From Mayamaea pseudoterrestris (lineage: Eukaryota): a stretch of DNA of 64,000 bases. The number at the start of each line of letters is the position of its first letter. The stretch's first letter is position 1. Of this stretch, positions 1-30,018 are shown piece by piece. The notes below the pieces were generated by a model. That model saw nothing but the letters and a program-made list of their open reading frames with translations, was not told the DNA's origin and searched no databases. The translations under genes were made by a program, and so were the position numbers. The stretch is taken from assembly GCA_027923505.1 (NCBI GenBank), contig BROI01000005.1, positions 992,001-1,056,000 on the forward strand, written 5' to 3'.

Positions 1-1014
1 CACAATGACCGTGTTAGCTATGTGGCTTCACTTCCGTAGTATGCTCTCAAATTGCCTTTGATTACCACGCAATTAGTGCAATATCCAGCCTCTCCTTTGG
101 TCCATATAGACAAGAAATGTTGGCATCAACCATCAAATTGTTGCTGTGAGAGAGAGTGTCAACAATACTGTCTTTGTTTGACAGTGTTTGTGCGCGCGAA
201 GCGCGCAAAATCTTTGCAGGCTTTGTGAAACCATTGATCCTACCACCTCCCCACCCCGCGAATGTGTTTGACCTCCACAAAAACAAATTGCTTGTAGGAG
301 TAATAGTTTTAGATCGTAAGCAAATTTCGACAATATAGTATGGGAGCTGACTGGACAGAGATATTTATTTCACAAACCATTGTCAGTGACTGTTAGCTGC
401 CTCCCTGCTCCATGTCGCTAGCAGTGTAATCACCGATCATATCAAAAAGCAGCTAGACCATCGACGCTGGAAATCGACTCTCATATCGACTGCGACGCAA
501 GAAGTAGCATTGTCTCGCCCGATGAAGAGAAGCTAGCTTCGCCACAGCCGTGAGGGAAGTGTGCGTTTACATCAAGCTATGGTACGCCGCTGTTGCCATG
601 CTACCTTCCTCAATTTCGTTGCCATTTCTAGAACGGTTGATTATGATAAGGCTGATGTGGTTATTATGACTACCCCTACCCCTTCACTTATGCACGGCCC
701 GAAATTCGGAGTTTCCATAGTCGTTTCTACCGATGATGTCCTCTTGTGCCCGCGACTTTAGTGATGGAGCCTCGTTAGTTACTTCATGTGTCATGGTGTG
801 CTTCCCGTGATGAAGTATCGAGAGATACATTGAGAGCATCAGGCAGGCTTGGGCTTCGTCGATGCCGCGCAACGCGCGACTGTGCAGCCCATGCTGTCGG
901 GCACACGCAGCCGACGTTACCGTAAGCGAAAGACGACGTTGCACGAAAGTCAAAATATTTGGCTAAATCTAATTTACCTTATACCCTCAATAAACAATCT
1001 ACTAGTAGATGAAA

Positions 1015-1503
1015 TCACTTTCGACTCAATGAATCCTGCAGGAAGTTAATTCCTCGATTCCACGTCTTTCGGAGCGAAGTGCTAGAGCCTTCAAACTAAA
1101 CAAGTGGGGGTTAAGAGATGAAACGAATCTCGGAAATGAGAGATGTTGAAGACAGGTAAAACAATCGCAGTTTCGTATATGTATACAGTAGACGACACGC
1201 CACCCTCGCCAGCCGCCAGCCCAAGTGTCTCTCACTTACATTCTTCTCTTGTGTTTGTGCTCCGGCGGAAGGTCTCATTGATTCGTACTGCGCCTCGAGA
1301 GACTCTGTAGCAAAGCAAAATAAAGCACAAGAATTAGTTATATTCAGACAGTTGATAAGTCAAGAGGCTCATTATGTGTTCGCACCTCGTAACTTCCATT
1401 TCCACGAGAGCCGTTCTCGGTATGATAACTGCTGATGAACAAGAAGAAAGGACGTGCCAGCAAATGCAACGCCTACAAAGAGGGATGGCATGTGAATAGC
1501 CAT
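1015..1503 (-). CDS. Small single-TM protein, MICOS Mic12/QIL1(MIC13)-like, 3 exons (1503-1386, 1304-1240, 1095-1015), 87 aa
   Basis: GT..AG splicing (GTGCGA..CTACAG; GTAAGT..GTTTAG) joins one frame: MAIHMPSLFVGVAFAGTSFLLVHQQLSYRERLSWKWKLRESLEAQYESMRPSAGAQTQEKNFEGSSTSLRKTWNRGINFLQDSLSRK*. It has an N-terminal Gly-containing hydrophobic helix and a C-terminal 'WN' motif. Confidence 0.6.
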
Positions 1504-1705
1504 TGAATTACTGAACGATAGATGAATAGACAAGTTGTAAAGCTGGCGATGATCGACCAACGCGTCGTGGTCGAAGTCGAAATCGATGGAACGCGATTGC
1601 AACATCGTACCGGTATCAACATTCATTTTCAGTGCCGCTTTCTCACTGTCATTTTTATTGGCGCGCCAACTGCGGTATCTTGCGGCGGATGGTTTTTCTT
1701 TGATA

Positions 1706-1769
1706 CTACGAATTCGAGAACAATTGACACGTCAACGGCTTTTCAATGACGCTCAAAGGAGTCTCAAGG
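1706..1769 (+). repeat. Left terminal inverted repeat, 64 bp
   Basis: CTACGAATTCGAGAACAATTGACACGTCAACGGCTTTTCAATGACGCTCAAAGGAGTCTCAAGG, the exact reverse complement of 5399-5462. Confidence 0.97.
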
Positions 1770-2154
1770 CTTCGCCAACCAATCTCGTTGAGCGTCAAAA
1801 AACAGTTTCGCCGCCATCACCATGGCGGAGCATCGTCTTTAACTATATTTAACAACCATTACCTCGGTTTTTAGAGCGTAAGTAGAGCAATTAGAGCAAG
1901 ACGAATCCATCTGTGCTATTTGTTTTGACGCGGCGCATCAGGAATGCTCCCGATCAGTGCGTCATGATTCGTCGTCGCAGCATGCAGCTTGACGCCTCCG
2001 CCATCACCATCAAGCATCGATACATTTGATGTTTAAATTTCCTTTCAAATGCCTCACTTGTCATTTTTGTTATTCTTTTGAACAGGAATGGTTTGCTTGA
2101 AGGAAAGCTTTAAATTTGATACAACCGCCATCAAGCCGCCACTACAACACCATC

Positions 2155-3284
2155 ATGCCTCGTGCTGATCCTGCCGACATTGTCGCACGCGAGCGCTCGG
2201 CTGCTGGCTTAGCGCGGCAACTTGGAGCTCTTCGTCAAGCGCCTCCTCATCCTTCACGTGGTGGTTCCACTGGCTATCCAGTCTCACAGCGGGAGCAAGA
2301 GCTGGCTCGTGAGCAGCAAGGGCTTCCAGTCGCCATGTCGCGCAGCACAATGTATCGGTACCGAGTCAATGGAGTCAATCCAAAGAGAGCAACCGGAAAT
2401 AGGCAGAGAGAAGTTTTGGTTGGACTTTCGCAAATTGCATTGGCCATCATTTTGTTTGCACATCCAGAAGCCAGTGTTGATCAAATTGCAACGTTCATTT
2501 ACGCCAACACTGGCGAAGTTGTCTCCCGCTCTCAAGTGTCAGAACGCATGGCAGAGCTCCAGATTTCAAAAAAGAAAGCATCTACAGAAGCATACCAAGC
2601 ATTTACCCCAGTCAATATGCTTCGGGCGACATGGTTTTGGAGTCAGCCACCACCACTTGGTGTAGTGACGGTGCGGCGCAATCAATTCATTGATTTTGAC
2701 GAGTGTGCGTTCAACCTTGAGAAACAAACCGTTCCACAGGACATTCAGCCGTTGGTGTTCGCATCCGCAAGCCAGGACACTACAGCAGAGACCAGAAGAT
2801 TACTTTGCTCATGGCAATTGAGCCTGGTGACCCAGCGTTGCCTCCCAATGTAGCTGGAAGCGTCGACAATCCTCGCCGTTGGTTTCGGACGTACATGGAT
2901 CCAGGGACAACAGCAGAACGATTTGCAGACTTTTGCAACATTGTCTGTACTACTTGTGAGAATAGCGGCCTGCCTGTGGATGGAGATCGGGTTTTATTGT
3001 GGGATAATCTGGCTTCTCATGGTGCTGGCATTGTTTACCAAACAGTAGTGGGCCGCGCGCTTCCTCAACGCTTTCGAATCATACCTAGACCACCCTATCA
3101 GCCCAAATATGGTCCAATTGAGTATGCCTTTTGTATGATTGGTGTTCAGCTTCGAGAAATGTCTCGCCAGCACTGGACAGTGCAGCATCTTGAGCAAGCA
3201 ATTCACCAAGTATGCGCTGCCATTGGTCGCAGTGGCGGCTTTGATCGAACGTTTGCGCATTGCGGATACCAAGTTTTAAACTAA
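2155..3284 (+). pseudogene. IS630/Tc1-like DD38E transposase interrupted by a -1 frameshift at about 2721-2728 (376 aa if one base is restored)
   Basis: N-terminal HTH-like region (SRSTMYRY...VSRSQVSERM), first Asp motif IDFDE, then in the -1 frame LLWDNLASH and PPYQPKYGPIEY with 38 residues between D and E. Confidence 0.88.
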
Positions 3285-3485
3285 CAGAACTATTTTGATT
3301 TGTAAATAGATACTGTATTATATAAAGTAGGAGCTGGTGCGTCTATCTTAATGGCCAATGCTGATGCACGACTCGGGTGTAGCACGCACCTCAGCTCCAC
3401 GTTCTGCAAGTCTTCAAGACGATTCAAGCGCCTCCAGTGGCTTGTGAACGTGGTCTACTGTAGAGAAATCTCTTCTTTGAAAGTC

Positions 3486-5304
3486 CTAGCTGAATCGAGT
3501 GGCAAGGACATGGATGCGCTTCTTCAGCTTCTCTTCGTCTGCTTGCATCATTGCTAGGCTTCCCAGCTTGGAGCAAATGGAATTCGTATCGCGGAAGCGA
3601 GGATGATCTTGCGAAAAGAGACTGTCACAGAAAACACCATGGCCTTTGTCTTCAAAACCATCCGCTGACATGATGTCAAGCAGCAAGCCAAGGATGAGTT
3701 CCTTCTTCTGCTCAAGCTCTGGGTCGGAGGCTTGCTTCAACGGTGTACTCTCGCGCAAATGCGCTGGGCTGTTCTCAAGTGGAGACACTCGAAGCAAGTT
3801 ATTGCGTGAAACTCGGTTGCCGGTTGCTGCATTGGGAGGGACCGTAATGCCTGCTCGCTTGTTGGATGAGCTGGTGGCAAATGACATGTTGCGCTTTGTG
3901 GCAATGTCATTTTCACCAGCATTTGTTGCTGCGAGTCGCTTGTTCTTGCGGATCTGATCAATTGAGAACCCTCCATGATAAGTAGTAAGAGCACCAGTTG
4001 CTTCTTGTGCAGCCAAGCGTAGCTGCATATTTCCTTGGAGGAGAGGGTCATGGAGAAGGTTGACGGCTGTCATGCTGCAAATGTCTGGAAACAACGCTTG
4101 CGAATCTGCGCATAGATTTCCATCCACAACCTCTCGCGCAGAGCATGCAAACACATCTCGTACAGTAGAGCAAAAATCAACGGTTGGGCCTGTAGTTAAC
4201 AAGTAGATCATGTGAGTCTGTGAGTTGCGCGTATGGATGGCAAGCATGACAAGAATCCATGAACGTACGTTGGAACGAATCACCTTCACGCGCTGACAGT
4301 GCCATTTCCGCAATCTTACGATGATCAGCTGAATAGTATCCAGCGCAACAAGTTGACTTGCAAATACTGCAGCTACAATCCATGCCAAGGGGACCTTGGA
4401 CCAGTGGCCGCTGCATACCTGCATCCATCAAAGCCTTGCACGCGTAGCAGCTGCATTCGCTTGATCCGCAATGGAGCGAGTATGAAAAGCAAACTAGTCG
4501 CTGCGAGTAAGTCTTTCCGCATCTTGGCTTCTTGTTTGGGTTTGCGCCAGTTCCTTGCCAGTCAGCCAAAGCTTGCTTGTGCGTTGCGAGAGTGCGCTCG
4601 TTCCGTTCCTGGACTTGGCTTGGCGTGTCAAATGCGTTGATCGTCTTCTGTCCACAAACAGCGCACGCCTCTCGTGTCACTGCTTCCAAAGAATCAAAGA
4701 CCATGGAGTCTTGGACGCGCTTTCCATTCTTGTCGAGGATTTTGTAGGATGCAAGGGATTTGGGTTGCGCAGTTGACAAATGGTTGCGATGTGATTCCAG
4801 TTTGATGATTGCGCTGCGAAGGGAAGCAATGGCACTTGATGGCTTGCTGCTGCGACGAGTAGCCACAGAGTCCTCCATTTTAAAACATTCCTTGCTCTGT
4901 TCATCAAAGAGGTGGAGCTGAATGATGGTGCCGGCGCATTCGTCAGCCTTCCACTGCTTCAAGCGCGATTCTGGTTCGACAAGGATGGCATGCAAAAGTT
5001 TTGTGAGAGGCTGATCTGGACCAAGTAATGAAGCATGGAAGTCTGCCTTCTTCTCAATTTGGCGCTTCTTGAAGAGTTTGATGATCTGAAGCTTGTCAGT
5101 CCGGCTCAGAGGCTTGCGAGAGGTGGCGATGGGCAAGAGCGGCGACTCGTTCCAGGACGTGACGGTGACAGCATTGGTGTCGGCTACCAGCTCAATTTCA
5201 TCTGCCGCGAGACTTCCTTCATCATCTACATCCATTACTTCCATGTCAGAAGAGATTAGTAGTGACGCAACAGGGCTATCAATGTTAATAGGTGAGCTAT
5301 TCAT
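3486..5304 (-). CDS. Transposon-borne uncharacterised Cys-rich (putative multi-zinc) protein, 2 exons (5304-4269, 4189-3486), 579 aa
   Basis: ORFs 4177-5304 and 3486-4424 join in frame across a 79-nt GTACGT...CTACAG intron (4268-4190). Cys cluster CAVC...CFSYSLHCGSSECSCYAC...CSCSICKSTCC. Lies wholly inside the TIRs. Confidence 0.8.
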
Positions 5305-5398
5305 TGTTACGGCAGGGCAGCCATGGTGACGTGACGAGGCGAGGAAATGTGCGGCATCGCGTCGCCGCGCGCAGGCTCAATGAATTCCGCTGGGACTC

Positions 5399-5462
5399 CC
5401 TTGAGACTCCTTTGAGCGTCATTGAAAAGCCGTTGACGTGTCAATTGTTCTCGAATTCGTAG
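5399..5462 (-). repeat. Right terminal inverted repeat, 64 bp
   Basis: Exact reverse complement of 1706-1769, followed by TA at 5463-5464. Confidence 0.97.
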
Positions 5463-6112
5463 TATTATATTCTGTCGTTGGCTGTAGATTGTGACCAGGC
5501 GATGATGATTTAAACGCATCTGTGAGAACGCCTGTTAGATCCTTTGTGGTCTCATGTTGCAGAGAAATGACGATGATGCAAGGTGTGCAGTGCAGTACGC
5601 TCGGGTGAACCTTAAAATTGAAAGACATCATTTACTAGTATTCCGATTTGATGTTGCCTCGTCGCTCGTCACCGTCGCGTACAGTTGTACAGCATGGGTT
5701 CCGACAAAGGAACAAGCATACACACACATACTGAGTATTAAAGATAGTGTTTGCTTTGCATATACTGGAAAAACTCGCAGGCAAATCGGTCCGTCGACGA
5801 GCACCGAGATAAAATCACTTCCTCGGGATATGCCACTTGACAAAGTGTGCATTGGTATGATACTTTGAATGTATTTTGGACGTTAAAGGTCGCAAGTCAC
5901 TGTCATCGGCAGATGCGCGATGCGCCGACCCACCCTCGCTGACAATCAACTGACTTTGAGGGCAACCATCAACCAACGATCAACTTTTTGCTGCTCCAAT
6001 AACCTATATAAACAACTCATTGGTTCTAACAAATTAATCGAGAAACAATGGTGATATAGCGCTTAGTAAATGTTAGCATCGACTCAAGTTACTCCTGCAT
6101 TCGCAGAACCTC

Positions 6113-6945
6113 TCAAAACATGCCCAAACTCTTCATACTCGGGGCAGCATCAGGTGGTTGCACGCAGTACTGCTCCTCCGACCTCAGGCAGCTCGCAGCA
6201 CTTTCAATCGCATTAATGATTGCCAAGTCAATTCCATTGTCGCGCACATAGGAGAGTGTTCCGAATTTGCCCTGGAGTCTTGTCCAAAAGACATTTGGCA
6301 GGTTAAGCTTGACGCCATCGCCAACGTTAAAGTTGAGCACATTGCCCTTTCCACCAAACTGGTCCACGACAAGAACGATGTACTTGTCGTCCTTTTGTCC
6401 CTCCTTGCCAAGGTCCCAGTAGTCACGGCTGTTGGAAAAAAGCAGAGATGTTAGCCAAGGAGGTTTACACTTCCATGTGTGACAAAAGGTACGTTTTGAT
6501 CGTATCTCCAATGATATCGCGCATTGACTCACATTGCCAGTCCAGGTGTGATTGGGTATGCCTGGCACAATACACGTAGACGAAATCCTGTGTCTCTCTC
6601 CAATGCAGTTAATAGGTCGTTCATACGTTTCGCTTGGCCCGAAGTGAGAAACTTCTCAACTTGTATGACATTGAGGCCAGATTCCTTGGGCAGCAAGTCG
6701 GGCCGGTTGACGCTTTCCAATCGTGCTGAAGCAGACAGTGGCATTAGCGTCGTTGCTATCGCAGCAGTAACAAAAAATACGCTTTTGGCGAAGAGATTTC
6801 TTCTTTGATAGTCGATTGCAAGTGGAGGTACGGGAGTTGGACTGGAAAATGCATTGACTCGACAACCACTATCGTCCATTGTCGTGGCTAGCAGTAAAAG
6901 AAGTGACGCGCATGCTCTGCGGGATCTATAATTAGTAGTCGTCAT
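6113..6945 (-). CDS. TPM-domain thylakoid lumenal 15-kDa-like protein, plastid targeted, 2 exons (intron 6532-6429)
   Basis: Hydrophobic leader ending VNA-F, RR motif, then NRPDLLP...LERDTGFRLRVLCQAYPITPGLAI|RDYW...LNFNVG...FWTRLQGKFG. Confidence 0.8.
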
Positions 6946-7188
6946 GATGCCCTCTACAGCTTTTGGGTGGAAAGTGTGTTAGAAGATGATGTGTGAGAGA
7001 AAAAAGTTAGTGTGATGGTTGTTGATGGTATTGTATGACGGCGATGACGTACACTTTTCGCCGACCGCGCCAGCGCGCGCAAACAGATCCGTTTTTCGAC
7101 GCGGGTCGTCCCTTACTCCTTTCAGTTTTCTCGCCATCGCAGCCTACCGGTACGCATTATTTCGCCGAATGCCTTTGGAATAGCCGCA

Positions 7189-7941
7189 ATGGAGCTCACT
7201 TTCTCGTGGTGGTGGATTGCCGGCATCGTTTTCATCGTAATTCTCACGGTGGCAGTCATTATGAATCCACTCATTTCTTTGATACTCCACCCCGTCCTTC
7301 TTCCATACCCTTGGCCATTGGACGACGAGAATGAGGAGCAGAAACACGCCGACAAAATGCGAACCGTTGTCTTTGCTGCCAGCTTTGATCCGCCTCATCT
7401 AGGGCACTTGAGGATGCTTGAATACCTTACGCGCAAGTATGGGAAGGTCCTCGTGGTGATTGGACGCAACCCATCGAAAGAGTACAAAGTCACACCCGAC
7501 CAACGCGCTGACTTGGTTCGGATTATGCTGCAACAAAATGACACTAATATTAAAAAAGACAAGAAGGTGAATAAAGTGGACAATATCCAAGTTTTAGTTG
7601 TGGAAGGATACGTTTGGCGTACCGTCATTCGCGAGGGCGCCTCGATTTTCTTTCGAGGCATTCGCACGTGGGAATCGGATGGACCAGACGAGCGAGCTTT
7701 GCAAATACTCAACACGTGGGGACCCCTGGTGCTTGGACCGCTGTGGTGGCCCATACCGACCGTTTTTATGCAAGGCGATCCAGAGTTGAACCATCTTTCG
7801 TCGACTCTTGTTCGAGAGACGTGCTTTCGCGGCTCTAACAAGAAGGAGCTGGAGCAACGCTTGAAGAAGATGGTACCAGAATTAATTGTTTGTAGGGTTG
7901 CGAGTTTGTATGGCGCTGTAAAGGAGAAGAAGAGTGATTGA
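7189..7941 (+). CDS. Bacterial-type phosphopantetheine adenylyltransferase (CoaD-like nucleotidyltransferase) with N-terminal hydrophobic anchor
   Basis: SFDPPHLGH (HxGH), RGIR..D..E and LSSTLVRE motifs matching the CoaD pattern. Confidence 0.72.
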   Translation: MELTFSWWWIAGIVFIVILTVAVIMNPLISLILHPVLLPYPWPLDDENEEQKHADKMRTVVFAASFDPPHLGHLRMLEYLTRKYGKVLVVIGRNPSKEYKVTPDQRADLVRIMLQQNDTNIKKDKKVNKVDNIQVLVVEGYVWRTVIREGASIFFRGIRTWESDGPDERALQILNTWGPLVLGPLWWPIPTVFMQGDPELNHLSSTLVRETCFRGSNKKELEQRLKKMVPELIVCRVASLYGAVKEKKSD

Positions 7942-8269
7942 GGCGATGAGTATGTGACTTTCTCCTGATTGGAGAGGGAACGGTTGCTGGAATGTTCGAT
8001 TGATGGTCTGAGTAGCAATGATGCTTGCGCGACACCAAGTGTTATCGCAAAAGAACTTAATTGGAAGCCTGCGATTGCGGAGCTGAAAGGGTGGATAGAC
8101 GGATAGAAATTGATCGGGGTTAAGCAACCAAATGTCTCTCTAGTGAACAGCAGACTATTCATATCTACTGGGTTACAATACCAAACAGATGGAACATACA
8201 TAAATTTAGATCAAAGATGCTCATTAATATAGAGTCATGACAGCGCGCCCGAATACAATTTACTTTAAC

Positions 8270-9568
8270 CTAACGTCTGTAATGCTTCTTCTTTCGATAA
8301 AACTTTTCCTCTTTTTTGTGACTCATCTGCTTGTTCTTGAACGCAATAAAGTCCTCCCAGTATTTCTTCTCCTCGTCGCCTTTTAAAACCTTGGCTGATG
8401 CCACTTTGGCGCTTCCCACCGTCACGTCACCCGATGCCAGCTTGAAACAAAGACCAGCCACCAGATCAGCCTCGAGAAACCGAATCGCTCCACCAGCTTG
8501 TCCCCGCGAGTAGTCAACATAAATCTTCAAGTCCTTTACTTGGTCCACTGTCATGTCGAGCCCCTGCGACACGGCGGCTAAAAGAGTTTCTCGGTCACAT
8601 TCATCAGGCAATCCCTCGAGGCGAATGACGCAGCCCGGCTTCCACTCCATGGTGAATGCTGGCGCGGCATCCGCGTTGTCTTCGTCTTCGCCATGGTCGT
8701 CGCGATTTCGCTTGTTTCTGCCATCGTCTTCACCTCCTTGTTCCTTTATCGCCTTGCGCTCCTGGACGTAATCGGCCAGGCTGCGCACCGTCAACGTTGT
8801 TTCGCCAAGCGTCAATTTGCGCTTTGGTTCCATCGCCACTCCATCCTTTACAGTAATTGTATCAGCCGCCGCCGTGTCACAATCTTCCTGCGTTGCAAAC
8901 TCTACAAAGGCCATTTTTAATGGTTCCTGCGTAAATCGCTTGCGGTCATTCGACTTGGAATAGTTTTTCCGAAACCGAAGTCGGCAGAGAGCTACCTTAC
9001 CATACTGCGCAAATAGTTCTTTGACTTGCTCCGTAGTGCACAAGTACTGCATCTTTGGAATGCTACTTTCGGTAGTCGTCGTTTCATCTTTCTTATCCTC
9101 GTCCTTGATTTCTGTTGTCGAAACTTCCACCAGCGGCAAATTTTCAACGACCAACGTGAGCGGCAAATTCTCGTCCATTTGTTCCTCCGTCCAGGGCTTT
9201 TTCAAGCCAATAGCCGTCTGATCTTCCGAAAGAACAATCATATCACTCAAACTTTCAGCTGCTTTGGCAACAATCGAAGCATCCTTGGTAATCTTGGAGA
9301 GCGTGTTGAAGCGCAAGAGCGTTGCAATCGGAACCATGTCGGCGTGTGGAGATTCGTCCTGCGGATTCACATTATTGCGACGATTGCGGGGATTTTTGTT
9401 ACTGCTGGACGACGACGTGAGAAACTTGCGGAGGAAGGCATCCTGACGGACATTGGCCGAACTAAAGAAGAAAGATAGGCGCTCCTTGACAGCGTCAATG
9501 TCGACCCCCGCAGACGAGGCAGTTGTGATCGTCTCGGTTTTCGCATTTGTTGCGTCTTCTGTTGCCAT
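8270..9568 (-). CDS. La/SSB-family RNA-binding protein (La motif, RRM, C-terminal xRRM-like)
   Basis: LSFFFSSANVRQDAFL (La motif), AFVEF RNP1, GDEEKKYW C-terminal RRM helix. Confidence 0.85.
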   Translation of the reverse strand: MATEDATNAKTETITTASSAGVDIDAVKERLSFFFSSANVRQDAFLRKFLTSSSSSNKNPRNRRNNVNPQDESPHADMVPIATLLRFNTLSKITKDASIVAKAAESLSDMIVLSEDQTAIGLKKPWTEEQMDENLPLTLVVENLPLVEVSTTEIKDEDKKDETTTTESSIPKMQYLCTTEQVKELFAQYGKVALCRLRFRKNYSKSNDRKRFTQEPLKMAFVEFATQEDCDTAAADTITVKDGVAMEPKRKLTLGETTLTVRSLADYVQERKAIKEQGGEDDGRNKRNRDDHGEDEDNADAAPAFTMEWKPGCVIRLEGLPDECDRETLLAAVSQGLDMTVDQVKDLKIYVDYSRGQAGGAIRFLEADLVAGLCFKLASGDVTVGSAKVASAKVLKGDEEKKYWEDFIAFKNKQMSHKKEEKFYRKKKHYRR

Positions 9569-9749
9569 GCTTGTTGTAAATAACGATGATTTATGCTTTG
9601 CTTTGCTTTATAGACTGTACCAATTGAAGGAATGACGGCAATAGAAATACAATGATCTTGATCCATCAAACCGACGCGCGATGTTTTTGCTTGGTTGGAT
9701 GTGCACGCCGGACGCAGCGGCATGGCGGACAGACTGCTGATAATGTTGT

Positions 9750-10300
9750 GAAACGACTGCCAGTGAAAACTACGTCATGAGGCAATAAATTAAACCAGTG
9801 CCAGTGAAAACTACGTCATAAGGCAATAATAAAAAAGAGTGCCAGTGAAAACTTTGTCATTAGGCTTTAATACGAAATGAGTGCCCGTGAGAACTGCGTC
9901 ATCTCCGAATAAGCCTTCTTCATTGAAAACGTCGCCAAAAGCAATACTACGAAACGAGTGCCAGTGTCAATGACGTCACAAGGCAATAGTACGAAACGAG
10001 TGCCAATGTCAATTTCGCCAGAAGGCAATAGTACGAAACAAGTGCCAGTGTCAATTAAGTCATTAGGCAATAGTATGAAACGAGTGCCAATGTCAATTAC
10101 GTCATTAGGCAATACTACGAAACGAGTGCCAGTGTCAATGACGTCACAAGGCAATAGTACGAAACGAGTGCCAATGTCAATTTCGCCAGAAGGCAATAGT
10201 ACGAAACAAGTGCCAGTGTCAATTAAGTCATTAGGCAATAGTATGAAACGAGTGCCAATGTCAATTACGTCATTAGGCAATGTTACGAAACAAGTTCAAG
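9750..10300. repeat. 42-bp minisatellite (about 13 units) with a perfect 168-bp (4-unit) higher-order duplication
   Basis: Units start at 9956, 9998, 10040, 10082, 10124, 10166, 10208, 10250 (example GAGTGCCAGTGTCAATGACGTCACAAGGCAATAGTACGAAAC). Degenerate 41-42 bp units at 9755, 9796, 9837, 9879. Confidence 0.95.
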
Positions 10301-10437
10301 TGAGTCGGCTTTTCCGTCTGCCATCCTTGCGACCTCACCGCTCCAACATCCAACACAACATCGCATCGCGAAGCACCCACTAGCGGAGTATCATTCGTAC
10401 ATACCTCCTGCATGCAAGACCACCAAGACCTTGCATA

Positions 10438-11715
10438 ATGAATGACTTTGTGCATCGTGACGGGTTTCCAGCCCTGAGGCTTTCCAAGAAGGAGAACAAG
10501 AATGACGAGGACAACGATGCCAACGACGAGACTCCAGAAACAAGCGTATGGAACACTCACGACGATGAAGCAATTCCTCGCCATGCGTTTTGGGCTTGTC
10601 CTGACGCACTCCAAGTAAAGACCATTGACAAGCTCCGTCAAGATTGTCGAACCGTGTTCACTGCTCGCGCCAAGGATGACGGACAAGCCTACAGCGCTGG
10701 CATCACCTACTTTTGTCCATCGCTCATGCCGCCCCGATGTGCTTTGGAAGCCTTGGCGCTTGACATCTTTCGAATGCATACCCAGCACTTGGCGGACGAT
10801 GTCATGGTTCCAGAACAATCTGGAGCCGAGTGGTGGACCTTGGTTATGGATGATGATAAAGATGAACATGATGACAAGAAGAAGGAGAACGATAGCGATG
10901 ATGTTCCTTCCAACGACGAAGATGACGAGAGTGACGAGGTTGGACTTCATTTCGACGCCGACTATGGGCTAGAGGAGCAAGCATCTGGACTCTTGCTACA
11001 CCCGCGACTGGCTACGGTCACCTATCTATCGGATTATGGCGCGCCAACCGTTGTTTTCGACAAGCGGTCGCCGACAGTCAAAGATGTAAACAAATCGTCG
11101 CTGCAGGGAGACATCACCAAAGGCTGGCTGTCCAGTCCATCTGTCGGAAAACACATTGCCTTTGACGGAAGGCTGCTGCATGGTGCGCCTGCCACCTTTT
11201 TTCCAGGAGCTACACTCGATGGCAACGTTATGGCCTCGGAGGATGGACCACCAATCAAGAAGCAAAAGATGGATCGCGTTCGATACACTTTTCTCGTAAA
11301 TATATGGATCAATCATTGTCCACTCGATGCGGAACCACTGGAGGACAGCATTGTCGAGCAACTGACGCCGGTCCATGTCGCGAACAAGCCGTTGTATATT
11401 TGGAAATCAAACTTGCCTGCAGCACTTGAAAACTCCTATGCTTGCACCAATGTGAAATTAAATAAGCACGGAAATGATGAAGAGCCCGCAGGCGAAGAAG
11501 AGTTTGTTCTATGCGATCGCTTGTTAACCGTCAAGTACAATTCGACTATGGAGGATCTGCATAAAGTTGCTACAATAGCAAGAAGCAACGATGGTACGGT
11601 AGAGCTGATTATTGCACCTGACGTTGTTACATTGAAGGTTGGTGGACGCGTAACTGAAAATGACGATGAAGGGAGTAGTAATGATGGAGAAGTAGTGACT
11701 GATGTTATTGGGTAG
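10438..11715 (+). CDS. Putative 2-oxoglutarate/Fe(II) dioxygenase-fold protein
   Basis: GAEWW, HFD (HxD), TVTYLSDYGAPT, FDGRLLHG (distal His), RYTFLVNIW. Confidence 0.6.
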   Translation: MNDFVHRDGFPALRLSKKENKNDEDNDANDETPETSVWNTHDDEAIPRHAFWACPDALQVKTIDKLRQDCRTVFTARAKDDGQAYSAGITYFCPSLMPPRCALEALALDIFRMHTQHLADDVMVPEQSGAEWWTLVMDDDKDEHDDKKKENDSDDVPSNDEDDESDEVGLHFDADYGLEEQASGLLLHPRLATVTYLSDYGAPTVVFDKRSPTVKDVNKSSLQGDITKGWLSSPSVGKHIAFDGRLLHGAPATFFPGATLDGNVMASEDGPPIKKQKMDRVRYTFLVNIWINHCPLDAEPLEDSIVEQLTPVHVANKPLYIWKSNLPAALENSYACTNVKLNKHGNDEEPAGEEEFVLCDRLLTVKYNSTMEDLHKVATIARSNDGTVELIIAPDVVTLKVGGRVTENDDEGSSNDGEVVTDVIG

Positions 11716-12220
11716 AGTATGATCTTGAAACCTGTACCACATTTATTTAGTAATGATTGAGCAACATGTATCATACGGTACAAGTTCTTCTACATACAGC
11801 TAAGAAACTTCTCGCTCGCTATCGATGGAGCAGAACTTGTACGAGTAGTGCGGTGTGCGGGTGCCAACTGGTCGCTTTGCGACACAGATACGAATCGTAC
11901 CGGTACGACTTGGAACGTCACGATCTTGACTCGGAATCTTGGCTTGGATCCTCCAGCTTGCAGCAGTTGCGGTTTTCTAAAAAATAAACTCTCGTCTTGC
12001 CAGTTCACACTACAGCGGCAACAAGTCTTTAGCTGCTTGTCGTTTGGCAGCAGATCAGGAAAGAATACTTGCAATAGCTTGAGTGAGGGATTGAGACGAT
12101 CCGAGCCATTTTCTGTAGTCGCAAGTTGCAAGGGACCCAAGCAGCATCTCCGACGCTGCAACAGCCACACCAGATATAGCTTCGCTAAATCGATTGATAG
12201 ACACGCCATTAACTACAGAG

Positions 12221-23136: not shown

Positions 23137-25470
23137 ATGTCAACTGCAATGGTTCATGTTTCATCCTCTTCGATCGCGTCGTCCTCCCAGCAGGTGACTG
23201 CAGAATCCATAGGAGTGCAACCTGCAGCAAATCCGATGGCCCAATTGAGACTAAGCGATGAATCGAGTTACGTCCAGGAGGCGATGGACAAGCCTGTTAA
23301 TGCTGATAGCGCGCCCCAACAAGGTGTAGATGAATCTCATGCAATAGACTTGCTGGCAGCAGCGACAACACATTTTGCCGCGGATGAAACTTTGATTGAG
23401 CAGCTTTTGACCAAGAAACTACTCGAGATACTAACCGAAATGGCTGTCACGGGCGAGTGTAATTGGCTACCTTGGTCGACACCGGAAGACGCCACACGAC
23501 AGAATCATGCAGGGGCAAGGAATATCAACCAAGTCATGGCCGAACATATGCCGTCGCCACTACCTCGTTGTAAGTCGTCACCAACGACTGAATCATTGGA
23601 CGACGATGGCCGCAGTCAAGAATATGCGCGCCAGACTAATGGTGAACTTATCAGAAGCCGCAAACGTCCACGCGGCCCTGCTCATGCGATCGATGCAGGA
23701 AATGAACTCGCAGCGACGGGCTCATACGCGTTTCAATTTAACAACAGTTGTATCAGTAGTAGTACTGTTATAAAAGACCGCGAGTTCGACATGAACGAAC
23801 AAAATGTATCGGAGAGTACAGCTTTGTTTACGCAGGCCGACCAGGGTATTGACAATTACCATTTTCCGGGAAAGGACCGACCATACAAGACACCAAAGAA
23901 TTCAATGGAACCGTTTACCACCATGCCATTTTCGTCATTGTTACGAGAAGAGTTGGACTTTACATCATTGCAATCATGTACCTGCCAAAAAGAAGTGATC
24001 TACATCGCGCTGAGTGTCGTATTGGATCATTTTTACCAGCACCAAGGCTATAAGGCAAGTCCAACAGAAATGCGCCTATACTACGAGCAGCCGCTTGCTA
24101 GCGCGAATCAGCAAACACAAGAGAGGATGGCTACGGTGGAACCAGTAGATCTTGTGTCATTGCGGAGTGCTGATTCTTCCGAGCTTTTCGGAACAGTCAG
24201 AGGTAGTCAGCAACCTTCCGGCGATACAGTAGAGAAACATTTATACATGCAGCGTCGAGAGCGGCTGTTGAACATGTTAGGACCCCTCAATGGCCCGTCA
24301 GCTCAGACAAGTGCGCCATTTACGCTCCAGCGAATTGCCGAAGTTCTTCTTGCGCCGAAACGTTATTACACGCAGACACACAAACTCTGCAACTCTTTAG
24401 AAAAGCTTTTACTCGTCACAACGTCTGAAAGTGAATTTGGCGGGAGCACTGGTGGAGTTTGTGAACGCAGTATACAGGGCGGGTTGGAATCGGCTGCTTT
24501 GGCCGAGGAACAGGGACGATTAATTTACGAAGTCCGTCGTCAACGACTGCGAAGGCGAGCACCATCTTATTTAGACGCGGCAAATGATGCGTCCTTAAGC
24601 GGTGATTATACTTTAAATGAGGAGTCACATGACGACGTGACACATGGTGAGCTTCTTCACGACAGAGAGAGTGCAAGGGGCAATTTCTTGGAAGCTGCTG
24701 CCCGAGCGTCGCTTCGTACAAAGTTTGACCACGTTGGTGTTGATGCTCAATCAAGTGCTGCTGCTGGTCGCGCCATTGCCGAAACACGCGGAGTGAGTGG
24801 TTCACCACCGCCACCGAACTGTTCAGTCGTCGCTGGACTTGCTCATGTGCCTTTGCTTCGGCCAGGAGGCGACTCGGACCACTTACTCTCGCTTGGACAT
24901 GTTTCGTCGCCAATTCTGTTCAACCACCATGGCTCCTCGCAGTCGAATGTCTTACCATTGCAGGGAACAATCCACCCAAATGCCAGTCTGCAGCTGCTCC
25001 AACTTCACCATGCTGCTGCATTGGCAGGAGTATCTCCGTTTGAGCTTCTGAATTTGAACGTTGAGAGTCATTCCTTGGGCGCTGCTCCGACGCTATCATC
25101 CCTTGCCACTGTTGCGTTTGGAAAGGACATTGATGTTGAGAGTCGGTCCTCTTGCTCGTCTGACATTGCTTCTGATTCAGAGTCAGATGTTTCCTTTGAT
25201 GATTCGGCGTCAGATCGGAGCGATGGAAGTGATAGCGGCCACTCTGAACCCATTTCGGCTGCTCGTGCCGTGGCTCTGAGCCGGATGCAGCAACAGCAGC
25301 GTTTGCAGCAAAGTCGCATGTTGAATGCATATAATCTGAACAACGGTCCAAGCAGTCCAGCGCACCATGGTGAGAGCTACCGAACCGACTTGGACACTGA
25401 CGTTCAGTCTAGGGAAGGCGAAGGCAGAAACATTAGATCGCCGCCAGCGGATGAATTTGCAGGTTTATAA
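23137..25470 (+). CDS. PPP4R2: Protein phosphatase 4 regulatory subunit 2-like protein with long low-complexity extensions
   Basis: APFTLQRIAEVLLAPKRYYTQTHKLCNSLEKLL is the PPP4R2 core signature; start codon uncertain. Confidence 0.72.
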   Translation: MSTAMVHVSSSSIASSSQQVTAESIGVQPAANPMAQLRLSDESSYVQEAMDKPVNADSAPQQGVDESHAIDLLAAATTHFAADETLIEQLLTKKLLEILTEMAVTGECNWLPWSTPEDATRQNHAGARNINQVMAEHMPSPLPRCKSSPTTESLDDDGRSQEYARQTNGELIRSRKRPRGPAHAIDAGNELAATGSYAFQFNNSCISSSTVIKDREFDMNEQNVSESTALFTQADQGIDNYHFPGKDRPYKTPKNSMEPFTTMPFSSLLREELDFTSLQSCTCQKEVIYIALSVVLDHFYQHQGYKASPTEMRLYYEQPLASANQQTQERMATVEPVDLVSLRSADSSELFGTVRGSQQPSGDTVEKHLYMQRRERLLNMLGPLNGPSAQTSAPFTLQRIAEVLLAPKRYYTQTHKLCNSLEKLLLVTTSESEFGGSTGGVCERSIQGGLESAALAEEQGRLIYEVRRQRLRRRAPSYLDAANDASLSGDYTLNEESHDDVTHGELLHDRESARGNFLEAAARASLRTKFDHVGVDAQSSAAAGRAIAETRGVSGSPPPPNCSVVAGLAHVPLLRPGGDSDHLLSLGHVSSPILFNHHGSSQSNVLPLQGTIHPNASLQLLQLHHAAALAGVSPFELLNLNVESHSLGAAPTLSSLATVAFGKDIDVESRSSCSSDIASDSESDVSFDDSASDRSDGSDSGHSEPISAARAVALSRMQQQQRLQQSRMLNAYNLNNGPSSPAHHGESYRTDLDTDVQSREGEGRNIRSPPADEFAGL

Positions 25471-25712
25471 AGTGACAACTGGTGGTGCGTTTAAGAGGTA
25501 CAACTATAGTAGATCATTATAATTAAGTCAAGAGCTCTACCTTTCGCCTTTTTGGTTGTTCTGTCGTTGCGCCTGCCTCTTCTCGACCCTCGTCCCAGAG
25601 AATTGGGCGCCAAAAACTACCGTAGAATGCAAGTCCGTCTGGACGGCAGAATTAATTATTTGTTCAATCAGAATGTACGCATTCATCGACACAAGTACTC
25701 TCGGCCACAACT

Positions 25713-28393
25713 TTAGAGAAACTGACTTTTCGTAGCGGTGCTCCCCCAATTTTCGTTCTCAAACGTCTCCGTACCGTGGCCGGCAGCATCACTTTCTTCA
25801 TCATCAGTGTCGTCCATCAAACGAGAGCGCTGTGTGGACGCCTTCTTGCGTCCCTGCGTATTCGCGTGGGAAGCAACCATATTCTTCGCAGCAGGTGCGC
25901 GAGTGCGCTTTTTGGTCTGCTGGAAACCTGAATCGTCCATGTCGTCATCGTCAATTTCAATTACAGCGTCAGAGTCATTCTCGGAATCACTTTCAACCTT
26001 GTAGCTTCTCCGCTTTGCAGATGCTCCACGCGAGGGACGAGCGGCAGGCTTGCGACTGGTCGTCGTCTCCGTCTTGCACGACATTTGACTAGTCATGGAG
26101 GCGCGATTGTCCTTATCGCCATCTTCGTCAGAGCTAAGGCCAATCGTTTCCTTTACGCGCGAGCGCTTTTGCGACTGGCTGCTAATAGCTGTCTTGGATT
26201 TAGATGGCTTGGAAGCAGGCTGGAATTTCTTGGAACTAGGAAAAATTTCATCCTCGTCATTGATACCGTCCTTGTCATAGCTATTTTTTGTTTCCATCGA
26301 AACATCATTATCACCTTTAGTGTCTCCGCCTTTTGAATGACGCTGGGAGCGGGAAGCTGCCTTTTCTTGATCAACAGTCACTTTCATGTCCATTGTCTTG
26401 ACAAGTTCCTCGTCAAAAAAATCGCGAATCGCCGACCCCTTGACAGTCGCGTCCTGTCGGTCAAGTTTGGCGAGCAATAGCTTTTGTTTTTCGGCGATCA
26501 ACTTGTCTGTCGTTTCCTCGATAGTGGAACTGGCGCTCTTGTCCACATACTCAGCAAGTGACTCGGTCAATTTCGTTTTGTCCAGCATTTTCAGCGCCCG
26601 GTCGTGCTTGTCGTCATCACTAAAGTAATCCATCACCAAATCTTCCATGTGAATTCGCTCCAAATTGTCCGGATCAATGGGCGTTTTTAAAAAGTTCTGT
26701 CGATCCTTGGCCGAAATTTTACTATTGACAGACTTCACTTCTTTACGTCGATGGAAAAGTAATATATCATTGGCGTTGGCCACTTCTCCAACAAAGCGAG
26801 CCCCAAAGCGCTGGTTGTTGATCGTTGAAAAGCCAGAATGTTCGACGCGAATTCGAACAAGCACTTCGTTGGACTTTTCAATGCGGTTCTGCAAAGAAGA
26901 ATCTTCCTCCCCTGCATCGTTTCCAAGAGCCAACGCCTCAGCAATAACCTCCTCCGTCCGCTCATGCGCGTTCCGGACAGCAACCCTCACCTCCTTTTCC
27001 AACAGGGCGTTGATCTTGTCGTCAATTTTTGGGTCCTCGGGGTCAAGTTTGGCCTTGTGCTCTTGCAAGGAAAGGTCAGACGTGACAAACGACCGAACCT
27101 GCGTCAAAGGAATGGAATCCATGCGGTAGCGTCGACCCTTGACGTCCAAGATTCCAATGTGTTTGCGAACCGCCTCTCCAGCAACCAGACTAGTAGCCAC
27201 TGATGACCCAGGCTGCGTGATGCGGAACGTGCCTACAACTGATTCGGAGAAGGAGATCAGACATTCATGTTCATGCCCAAATACGACAATGTCCATCCAC
27301 TCTGGGATCATGGTTTCTTGGACACAATTCTTGGCGCCACGCCCAAAATCTCGGTTTTGATGTACCGCAAAGATGTTCAAAAAGCCAGAATCTTGTGCTT
27401 CCTCTTCGTCATCTTCTGCCTCGTCTTCTTCGGGGCGGAGAAATTGAACCTTTTTCGTCGCCCACATGCGGTTCAAACGCGCTTCGCGCATGGCGCCCAT
27501 GCCGTAAATAGCGAGTTTAGTTGAACCCTTTTCTATTAAAAGTGGAGATATTTCAATCTGGGGCAACATTTGGAAGCAGCATGGGAAGCAAGTGATTAGG
27601 CAAAGAATTGAAAACGCGCCGGTAAATAAGCTATGGCAATGGAACAAAACTCAACAGCCGTGACAGCCAGCAACCCAGTCGTACCTTATCTACATTATCT
27701 TGTCGTCCAAAGTAGTTGATAAAATTGCTGATTGATAATAAATCAAGGGCAGCCAGCATGTCCTTGCATCCAGGGTCGCGACTAGGATCATCATGGTTTC
27801 CATGAATCGAGAAAATGGGAAGATGCACTGCATAGTTTGGGTCCAAATAATTTACGCTTCCACTTTGAAAGTTCTTGGCGGGGTCACTGAGCATTCGAAT
27901 CTTTATTGGTTTGGGCCCCATGCAGTATCGTCGCATAATTTCCATCGTCTTGTACATGGTGTGACGAGTCGGACGGTTCTCGTGAAACAAATCACCGGCG
28001 ATTAAGACCTGGCAAGGGAATTGGTAACCGAAAACAAAAGGTGAGCGACAAACAAAGCGAAGAACAATTGCTATGAATTATCATTCATAATCTACCATAT
28101 CGCAGTTGAATTTCTGCGCCACGTAAAGAACTTCCTCGAATGCAGCAAACGAATCGTTGCCTGAAAATGATGAGAGCATAATGTTATTGTAACAAACAGG
28201 TTTACAATCCTCTAAAAAACCATGTTTCTCTATTCTCCTATAGCTTACCCCGGATAGGATCTCGCTCGGCATATCCTAAATGATTATCGGTAGAAATGAG
28301 GATCCGAATCGTGTCGTCACCGACGGAGAATCGTGGCATGGATCGAGCGGCGCGAGGCGACCTATGTTCTTCGTCTGAGGATGAGACAGGCAT
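25713..28393 (-). CDS. MRE11: Double-strand break repair nuclease MRE11, 4 exons (28393-28249, 28160-28096, 28008-27685, 27557-25713)
   Basis: STDNHLGY, GDLFHEN, HGNHDDP, HQNR, GHEHEC, TQPGSSVATSL, RFGARFVGEVAN; GT-AG introns keep the frame. Confidence 0.95.
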
Positions 28394-28763
28394 ATTGCGA
28401 AATGTATTTATGGAGTGATCTATGCGAAAGAAGGGGTATGTAGTCACTTGGATCACTGATTACGAGAAGGCTCCCACCATCATGGCAATGCGCGGAGCGA
28501 AAGACAAGATGAGCGGGTGCGTCGTCATTACCACTGCGATAAACAAAAATGGATCTTTGGGTCTTGCCAACGCAGCCCGCGTACTACTCTCTTGACCATA
28601 GTAGCATGCTTCTTTTCATGAATGAGGAGAGAGGCACAACGTCTCTTTCGTCGGTTTGCATTCATTCACAGCCGCCGCCTGCCTCTTGTTCATCATCATC
28701 ATCGCTGTAAGGATCAGACATCCCGATAATATACACAATTTTGAACCAAGCCAAGCATTGATC

Positions 28764-30018
28764 ATGTCAAAAGAACCGGATTACATTCCTGTCAACATTC
28801 TCGTCACTGGAGGAGCAGGTACGTGGTAGCGACAACTGTCCGATGCAGAATGTTCGTGCTCAGATCATTGGCTGCCGAGTAAAGTCTTTCCAGCTTCTCT
28901 TCATTACTGAAGGTCTGTTACTTTCAATCTTATTCTAAACGATCTGCAATATAATTTTCTTTTTACTTTGGTCGTTTTGCGCAGGATTCATCGCCTCCCA
29001 CGTGGCCATTCTTCTCTGCAAAAAGTACCCCAAGTACAACGTTGTGGTCTACGACAAGCTCGACTACTGCTCGTGCCTTGCCAATCTTGAAGAACTCTTT
29101 GATTTGCCCAACTTCAAGTTCATCAAGGGAGACATCTCATCGCCGGATCTCGTTAGCTACGTTTTGCGCGAGGAAAAGATTGATACGATTCTCCACTTTG
29201 CGGCGCAGACGCACGTGGACAACTCGTTTGGAAACTCGTTTGCTTTCACGGAAACTAACATTTACGGGACGCATGTTCTCTTGGAGTCGGCCAAGTGCTG
29301 CAAGACGCTCCGTCGCTTCGTTCATGTCAGTACGGATGAAGTCTACGGAGAAGGCGAGGACTTCGACACAGACCCCATGTCGGAGGAACACGTCTTGGAG
29401 CCGACCAACCCCTACGCGGCCACCAAGGCGGGAGCGGAGTTTCTCGTCAAGTCCTACTTTCGGAGCTTCAAGCTACCCTGCCTCATTACCAGAGGCAACA
29501 ATGTCTACGGGCCCCACCAGTTTCCGGAAAAACTCATTCCCAAGTTCACTAACCAGTTGATGCGGGGATTGCCAGTCACCTTGCATGGAGACGGCTCCAA
29601 CACGCGCAATTTTTTGTACGTCAAGGATGTTGCGACGGCATTTGACACTATTATGCACAAAGGAACGCCAGGCCATGTTTACAACATTGGAGGCAAGAAT
29701 GAGCTTCCCAATGTCGATGTCGCCCGCCAGTTGCTCAAGATCTTTGGTTACGACAAGGATGAGGAGAAATACCTCAAGTTTGTTCCGGACCGCCAGTTCA
29801 ACGACTTGCGATACACGATCAACTCAAACAAGCTTCACGAGTTGGGCTGGCAGGAGGAAATGCCGTGGGAGCAAGGACTCCAAGAAACGGTCGAGTGGTA
29901 CAGGCTTCATACCAGTCGCTACGGCAATATTGACGCAGCTTTGGTGGCGCACCCGCGCATGTTGAACACCGGCATCGACGAAAATGAAGTTCAAGACAAA
30001 ATTATGGGACCGAAATAA
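28764..30018 (+). CDS. NDP-glucose 4,6-dehydratase (RHM N-terminal/RmlB-like), 2 exons (intron 28819-28984)
   Basis: ILVTGGAG|FIASH Rossmann motif across the intron, HFAAQTHVDNSFGNS, STDEVYG, YAATK, NNVYGPHQFPEKLIPKF. Confidence 0.93.

Follow-up and report, generated by a model that had tools for sequence, protein, structure and literature searches.

A TIR-bounded IS630/Tc1/mariner element of the diatom Mayamaea pseudoterrestris carries a second, cysteine-rich gene

Transposons of the Tc1/mariner type are the textbook case of a mobile element that has one gene and is independent of its host, and widely used tools for gene transfer are built on them. Transposons can also encode proteins that are not transposases: VANDAL VANC and En/Spm TnpA are encoded by elements whose own DNA or chromatin they act on. 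In Ectocarpus, Harbinger elements carry two tail-to-tail genes in one TIR-bounded unit, and the same excerpted source describes TcMar-2_Ec32, a 4.4-kb stramenopile IS630/Tc1/mariner (ITm) element whose transposase is fused to a Cys-rich EsV-1-7 module (PMC12477816). The ciliate Tec/TBE elements, which are ITm relatives, have three ORFs, and the complementary strand carries one of these (PMC7325037, excerpted text). In open-access literature text, our search found no paper that describes an additional gene for elements of diatoms or of the mariner type.

Mayamaea pseudoterrestris is a freshwater pennate diatom. We analyzed a 64-kb stretch of its genome (the window, to which all positions refer). 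Positions 1706–5462 are a 3,757-bp cut-and-paste ITm transposon. Its two genes converge, and each starts close to one of the TIRs (Table 1). The inverted repeats (1703–1793 and 5375–5465, 91 nt) are 88% complementary, and the 33-nt TIR end was found in the window at 1706 and 5462 only, with 0.00 matches expected from 100 shuffles. The window holds a single copy of the element, and the 64-nt TIR had no match in viral contigs. The locus departs from the usual single-gene ITm layout by a 579-aa second gene inside the TIRs, the cargo gene. As the initial annotation had estimated, the cargo ATG lies about 95 bp inside the right TIR, measured from the inner edge of the perfect 64-bp repeat, and 158 bp from the element end; the TIR region may act as a promoter of the gene, as was proposed there.

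Table 1. Coordinates of the element, its two genes and its flanks, and conservation of the cargo cysteines
Feature	Position	Strand	Remarks
Left TA flank (target-site duplication)	1704–1705	.	TA directly outside the TIR; the empty-site joint starts after 1705
Left TIR	1706–1793	plus	64 bp perfect (1706–1769), weaker similarity up to 1793
Transposase gene, IS630/Tc1/mariner-type DDE_3	2155–3284	plus	Frames 2155–2724 and 2721–3284; ATG 2155
Spacer between convergent stop codons	3285–3485	.	201 bp
Cargo gene exon 2	3486–4189	minus	Stop TAG 3488–3486; conserved C-terminal motif, about residues 376–433
Cargo gene intron	4190–4268	minus	79 nt, GT..AG; X4 contig departs from the genome exactly at 4268
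Cargo gene exon 1	4269–5304	minus	ATG at 5304; acidic N-terminus, helical domain, Cys cluster
Cys cluster	4345–4665	minus	Residues 214–320; 13 Cys, 10 family-invariant
Right TIR	5375–5462	minus	64 bp perfect (5399–5462), weaker similarity from 5375
Right TA flank	5463–5464	.	TA directly outside the TIR
C214, C217, C272 conservation			31/31 sequences with a letter at the site
C279 conservation			29/29 sequences with a letter at the site
C286, C289 conservation			28/28 sequences with a letter at the site
C310 conservation			26/26 sequences with a letter at the site
C312 conservation			25/25 sequences with a letter at the site
C315 conservation			25/26 sequences with a letter at the site
C319 conservation			25/27 sequences with a letter at the site

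Some smaller features lie between the TIRs and the genes. The 9-mer CCGCCATCA occurs in three direct copies (1811, 1998 and 2125) within the 450 bp from the left TIR to the transposase ATG. Short uORFs at both element ends (1810–1835 and 5310–5360) start at CACCATGG, within the inner, weakly similar stretch of the TIRs, and the right-end uORF stops 3 nt ahead of the cargo ATG.

We mapped Logan contigs from four public sequencing runs on positions 1–12000 of the window. One contig of run X1 (60 letters past the joint) and one of run X2 (45 letters) joined 1705 to 5468; thus, filled and empty forms both exist as DNA. The joint omits 3,762 nt, which correspond to the element, one TA and three letters of the TA-rich run. 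At the X1 empty site, six letters (ATATAT) replace the skipped stretch. The empty form is an ancestral empty allele or an excision product, and the joint letters are unlike the element's ends. Depth was 15.7 for the X2 empty-site contig versus about 37 in flank contigs; contig depth is no guide to copy number and we drew no count from it. The mobile unit thus comprises both genes, which are there or missing together, and its boundary is the TIR ends. The initial annotation had described the gene as transposon cargo, and it does lie inside a TIR-bounded ITm element whose empty-site joint falls exactly at the TIR ends.

Repeats also lie elsewhere in the window. A 42-bp tandem array at 9899–10360 (eight overlapping copies of 168 nt) reached a summed depth of about 24,000–29,500 in X1 versus ~94 beside it, and of 4,400–5,100 versus ~37 in X2. 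Such depths point to a satellite of very high abundance, whose units are joined in many alternative ways. At 1–400, summed depth rose well beyond that of the adjacent bins (about 5,177 in X1, 956 in X2), with loose ends at 207–268; another repeated sequence probably ends near 220.

We then compared the transposase with known families. Its second frame matched Pfam DDE_3 (PF13358; E=7e-7, 29.6 bits, cutoff 28.6). An intact paralogue, P0077 (MPSEU_001030500; 376 aa), is encoded on another contig of 329 kb and is identical to the second frame at 185 of 187 residues; it matched the NCBIfam IS630 model (NF033545) with E=3.3e-16, the 59.6 bits lying below the equivalog cutoff of 100. A profile of 29 transposase relatives found the catalytic domains of SETMAR (9e-6) and Mos1 (2e-4). 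D284 and E323 are invariant in these 29 sequences and are separated by 38 residues, a DD38E spacing equal to that of the animal 'Intruder' group. At the N-terminus, HTH_33 (E=0.0038) and HTH_32 (E=0.02) matched weakly, both under their own cutoffs.

The transposase gene carries a 1-nt frameshift, a feature overlooked in the initial annotation. Because P0077 reads straight through this position ('...FNLEKTNRSTGH...'), one A must be missing from the A run at 2722–2724. Contigs of X1 have an extra A behind 2721, and those of the runs X2 and X4 show the same letters as the window; the deletion is thus real and not an assembly slip. A third transposase, P0078 (367 aa, 71% identity), is annotated on yet another contig. 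Judged by these paralogues, the M. pseudoterrestris genome holds at least two lineages of the transposon family.

We next turned to the cargo gene. Removal of the proposed 79-nt intron gives an open frame, as had been claimed, and every residue of the 579-aa spliced product is that of the NCBI hypothetical protein MPSEU_000368700 of M. pseudoterrestris. Gene models of this species were built with funannotate and RNA-seq, and the strain is diploid with a heterogeneity of 2.97% (PMC9724779, excerpted text). The two supplementary files of that paper contain none of the locus tags and neither 'Mariner' nor 'TcMar'.

The run contigs also bear on expression. X4 contigs omit two CT..AC stretches (GT..AG on the minus strand) at 1096–1239 and 1305–1385, and the DNA-like runs cover both unbroken. 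Because its contigs skip these two introns of the neighbouring gene, X4 holds spliced RNA; none of the runs is recorded as RNA, and the RNA nature of X4 is read from the skipped introns. X4 contigs lie on the transposase (2446–3193) and on the cargo gene (3364–3841 and 4268–4900). The contig at 4268–4900 ends in 45 extra letters that do not continue into the intron, as expected of a 4268/4190 splice; the 4268/4190 joint itself was not among the joints listed for the four runs. The cargo gene is apparently spliced and transcribed. The neighbouring gene (684–1731, minus strand) contains the two GT..AG introns named above. Its upstream ORF has a first ATG at ~1626, which places the transposon ~80 bp upstream of this ATG.

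X1 also covers the element interior, including cargo positions 3511–5280, and so provides a version of the element that is either a second locus or another strain's copy. Over this part of the cargo gene, the X1 version and the window differ at 11 positions (7 synonymous and 4 non-synonymous: A106G, G125S, S313G and G437S), without indels. The resulting pN/pS is about 0.17 (386 S sites and 1,303 N sites; 11 substitutions in one pair of versions), and the binomial probability of at least 7 synonymous changes among 11 is 0.0044. In the transposase (2359–3172), all six substitutions were synonymous. Judged by these substitution counts, a small sample, the two versions keep both genes under purifying selection. 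The signal may be compatible with a benefit to the element or to the host.

To find relatives of the cargo protein, we scanned 1.84 billion representatives with exon 1 (full HMMER scan, E <= 1e-3). Including the query itself, 31 proteins were returned, and ten reached <= 1e-10; the best of the 30 relatives had E 3.9e-26 and 36% identity. Only two sources carry a name among the 31 representatives and the cluster members listed for them, namely M. pseudoterrestris and one Bacillariaceae MAG; the other relatives come from JGI/IMG, ENA or Logan, and most of them lie on contigs of 1–4 kb. A word-indexed search with exon 1 returned only the protein itself, and with the family profile only two known members.

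Exon 2 was compared separately. A phmmer search with exon 2 against the 30 relatives found no match. A C-terminal profile built from 11 other members, with the 579-aa protein excluded, scored 25.6 bits on exon 2, and 2,000 shuffles scored at most 7.8. By this profile comparison, exon 2 is homologous too and the 579-aa protein is a full-length family member. Many short relatives stop 0–37 residues past the intron column (Q345) with odd hydrophobic tails, and the long relative P0010 has an in-frame hydrophobic insert at this same column. We infer that the short relatives were cut by prokaryote-style gene calling at an intron in the same place. Their lengths are untrustworthy because gene calling probably stopped at this shared intron, the position of which may be conserved across the family.

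The initial annotation had pointed to a dense Cys cluster of about 14 residues. Its pattern stood: C214-x2-C217, C262 and C272-x6-C279-x4-C284-x-C286-x2-C289, followed by C310-x-C312-x2-C315-x3-C319-C320. Its count did not, and is 13 within residues 214–320. N235, P260 and W249 are also near-invariant in the family alignment. Since ten of the Cys are invariant or nearly so across the 31 sequences, zinc binding by these ten residues is plausible. The triad H219/C274/C317 is jointly present in 14 of the 31 members, jointly absent in 10, including the 579-aa protein; 3 members have a mixture and 4 have gaps. Because these three residues co-occur, the alignment suggests a further metal site in the larger subfamily; the pattern tracks two clades.

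The segments described around the cluster were also recovered. Residues 1–45 have a net charge of -11 and lack K and R. Residues 435–500 are mildly basic (net +5), 47% S/T/P/G/N and of low complexity, and they are disordered in the structure model; the C-terminus is helical in the alignment-based model. From N- to C-terminus, the protein consists of an acidic N-terminus, a helical domain (about 50–180), the Cys cluster with the ten invariant Cys (214–319), a helical hairpin, the conserved C-terminal motif and disordered basic stretches. A SUMO-interacting motif consists of a hydrophobic core followed by an acidic/Ser run. A SIM-like regular expression, applied without a shuffle control, matched the N-terminus of 7 of the 21 members with an N-terminal stretch of at least 15 residues, including P0003 (MEVMDVDDE).

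The cluster had been called unfamiliar, and indeed it matched nothing in Pfam, NCBIfam or PDB sequences. Tesmin/TSO1 CXC, Zn2Cys6 and other Pfam zinc modules have what we take to be a similar Cys pattern; none of these profiles was matched by the cargo protein. Searches at E <= 1 with P0001 and P0002 found no Pfam zinc-finger family, nor did searches of all 31 members at E <= 0.1, which gave 9 unrelated singleton matches only. Myb/SANT was absent from 31/31 members at E <= 0.1, and EsV-1-7 had no Pfam match in the cargo protein or family. The best PDB sequence matches had E 0.97 for the protein and 0.41 for the family profile. NCBIfam gave no match for the cargo protein, and the ESM Atlas no usable match for either the whole protein or residues 45–345.

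Structure prediction and Foldseek had been suggested as a check and were run. The single-sequence model had a pLDDT of 37.6. The alignment-based model was confident, with pLDDT >90 over most of 50–340, and had no clear Foldseek match in PDB or BFVD. Pfam, PDB and structure comparisons found no known DNA-binding fold or motif in the cargo protein. By these comparisons, the cargo protein belongs to an undescribed family, so far found in diatom and environmental sequences.

We wondered whether relatives of the cargo gene also lie beside transposases. Searches for their loci gave no match in metagenome contigs (queries P0004 and alignment A5), in genome contigs (alignment A6 and P0003) or in viral contigs (alignment A6, P0031 and P0004). 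For P0039, a 636-aa relative of the cargo protein, and likewise for P0098, a 380-aa relative of the transposase, the longest Logan contig is 3,625 nt, a length that is enough for both genes. By a rough estimate, ~0.03 such ties would be expected by chance among the 9 x 10 Logan pairs, and the tie is a hint that relatives, too, may sit beside transposases. The 90% cluster of MPSEU_000368700 has one member on one contig; the loci of P0077 and P0078 are thus without an annotated cargo gene. A predicted complex of the transposase with cargo residues 45–435, computed without alignments or controls, gave no verdict (score 0.00).

Three other readings of the locus have to be weighed against an element-borne accessory factor. 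The gene might be a decaying or spurious ORF that was annotated by a pipeline and has no function. The lack of a Pfam, NCBIfam, PDB or Atlas match and the poor single-sequence model would fit this idea, but 30 homologues with invariant Cys, the confident alignment-based model, the excess of synonymous changes and the RNA-derived contigs on the gene speak against it. The family and selection evidence contradicts a spurious ORF, and we regard this reading as highly improbable. Equally improbable, in our judgment, is an ordinary host gene that happens to lie between chance inverted repeats beside a dead transposase. The gene is single copy in the window, as expected of a host gene, but the empty-site joint contradicts the idea by removing exactly the TIR-bounded stretch with both genes, and the TIR 33-mer has no expected chance occurrence.

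A more serious alternative is capture of a host gene by transduplication: a complete diatom gene of the Cys-rich family would ride as a passenger and serve the cell, or nothing. ITm elements normally encode a transposase only (PMC7325037, excerpted text); the proteome has no second annotated cargo copy, yet has two further transposase paralogues; and the intron position is apparently conserved, as in ordinary eukaryotic genes. Against a passenger speak, however, the completeness of the gene, its own start close to the TIR and a compact 3.76-kb arrangement in which it faces the transposase tail to tail. The gene is also intact in both element versions with its low pN/pS. Furthermore, the family was not seen among the named proteomes of other diatoms in the relatives' listings examined, and the P0039/P0098 tie hints at linkage with transposases outside this locus. 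We consider capture possible but rather unlikely.

Our favoured reading, to which we give about an even chance, is a two-gene ITm transposon with an element-borne, zinc-stabilised accessory factor. The Cys cluster would hold two or three zinc ions and stabilise a compact domain. The element would thus encode its own accessory factor, the cargo protein, which selection retains for its usefulness to the element. Its likeliest action would be to bind the element's own ends, chromatin or its transposase, so that transposition is assembled, targeted or de-repressed. The copy at 1706–5462, which is without a working transposase of its own, could be moved in trans by the intact paralogue P0077. A bolder and more doubtful version is that a diatom ITm lineage cannot do without the Cys-rich family as its second component: a zinc-cluster partner would bind ends or chromatin, perhaps through the acidic SIM-like N-terminus, and recruit the transposase or lift silencing. 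If true, the superfamily regarded as the simplest of all would contain a two-component system, with a partner fold that has no solved relative.

If the second gene is indeed a conserved part of the element, even Tc1/mariner elements can need an accessory factor or benefit from one. Diatom biology would also gain a recently mobile DNA transposon with filled and empty alleles and an intact transposase paralogue. With a confident predicted structure without a clear PDB or BFVD match, the cargo family is a target for structural work. It is likewise a target for tests of transposon targeting or anti-silencing, mechanisms that are little known in diatoms.

How does this element compare with known systems? 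With classic ITm transposons it shares the TA flanks, the TIRs, a DDE_3 transposase with its D..D..E residues and the catalytic likeness to IS630, SETMAR and Mos1. Classic elements have one gene and are usually about half as long, whereas the M. pseudoterrestris element adds an unrelated, conserved second gene in the opposite orientation. The tail-to-tail two-gene layout is shared with Harbinger/PIF elements, and by analogy the transposase could plausibly be recruited by a second protein that is itself not catalytic. However, Harbinger/PIF elements have a Myb/SANT-like partner and a 3-bp TNA/ANT duplication. The DDE_3 transposase, the TA flanks and the lack of Myb/SANT in 31/31 family members rule out that the diatom element is itself a Harbinger/PIF element. 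VANDAL VANC and En/Spm TnpA belong to other superfamilies, and any likeness of the cargo protein to them would be by analogy alone.

Extra coding modules are also known from ITm relatives. The ciliate Tec/TBE elements likewise combine an ITm-type DDE transposase with further ORFs, one on the opposite strand. They differ in their very long TIRs of about 700 bp, their host lineage and, it appears, their extra genes. TcMar-2_Ec32 is another stramenopile ITm element and has likewise acquired a Cys-rich module that putatively binds zinc. In that element, the transposase carries the module as an N-terminal fusion, whereas in the diatom element the Cys-rich protein is encoded by a separate gene and has no EsV-1-7 match.
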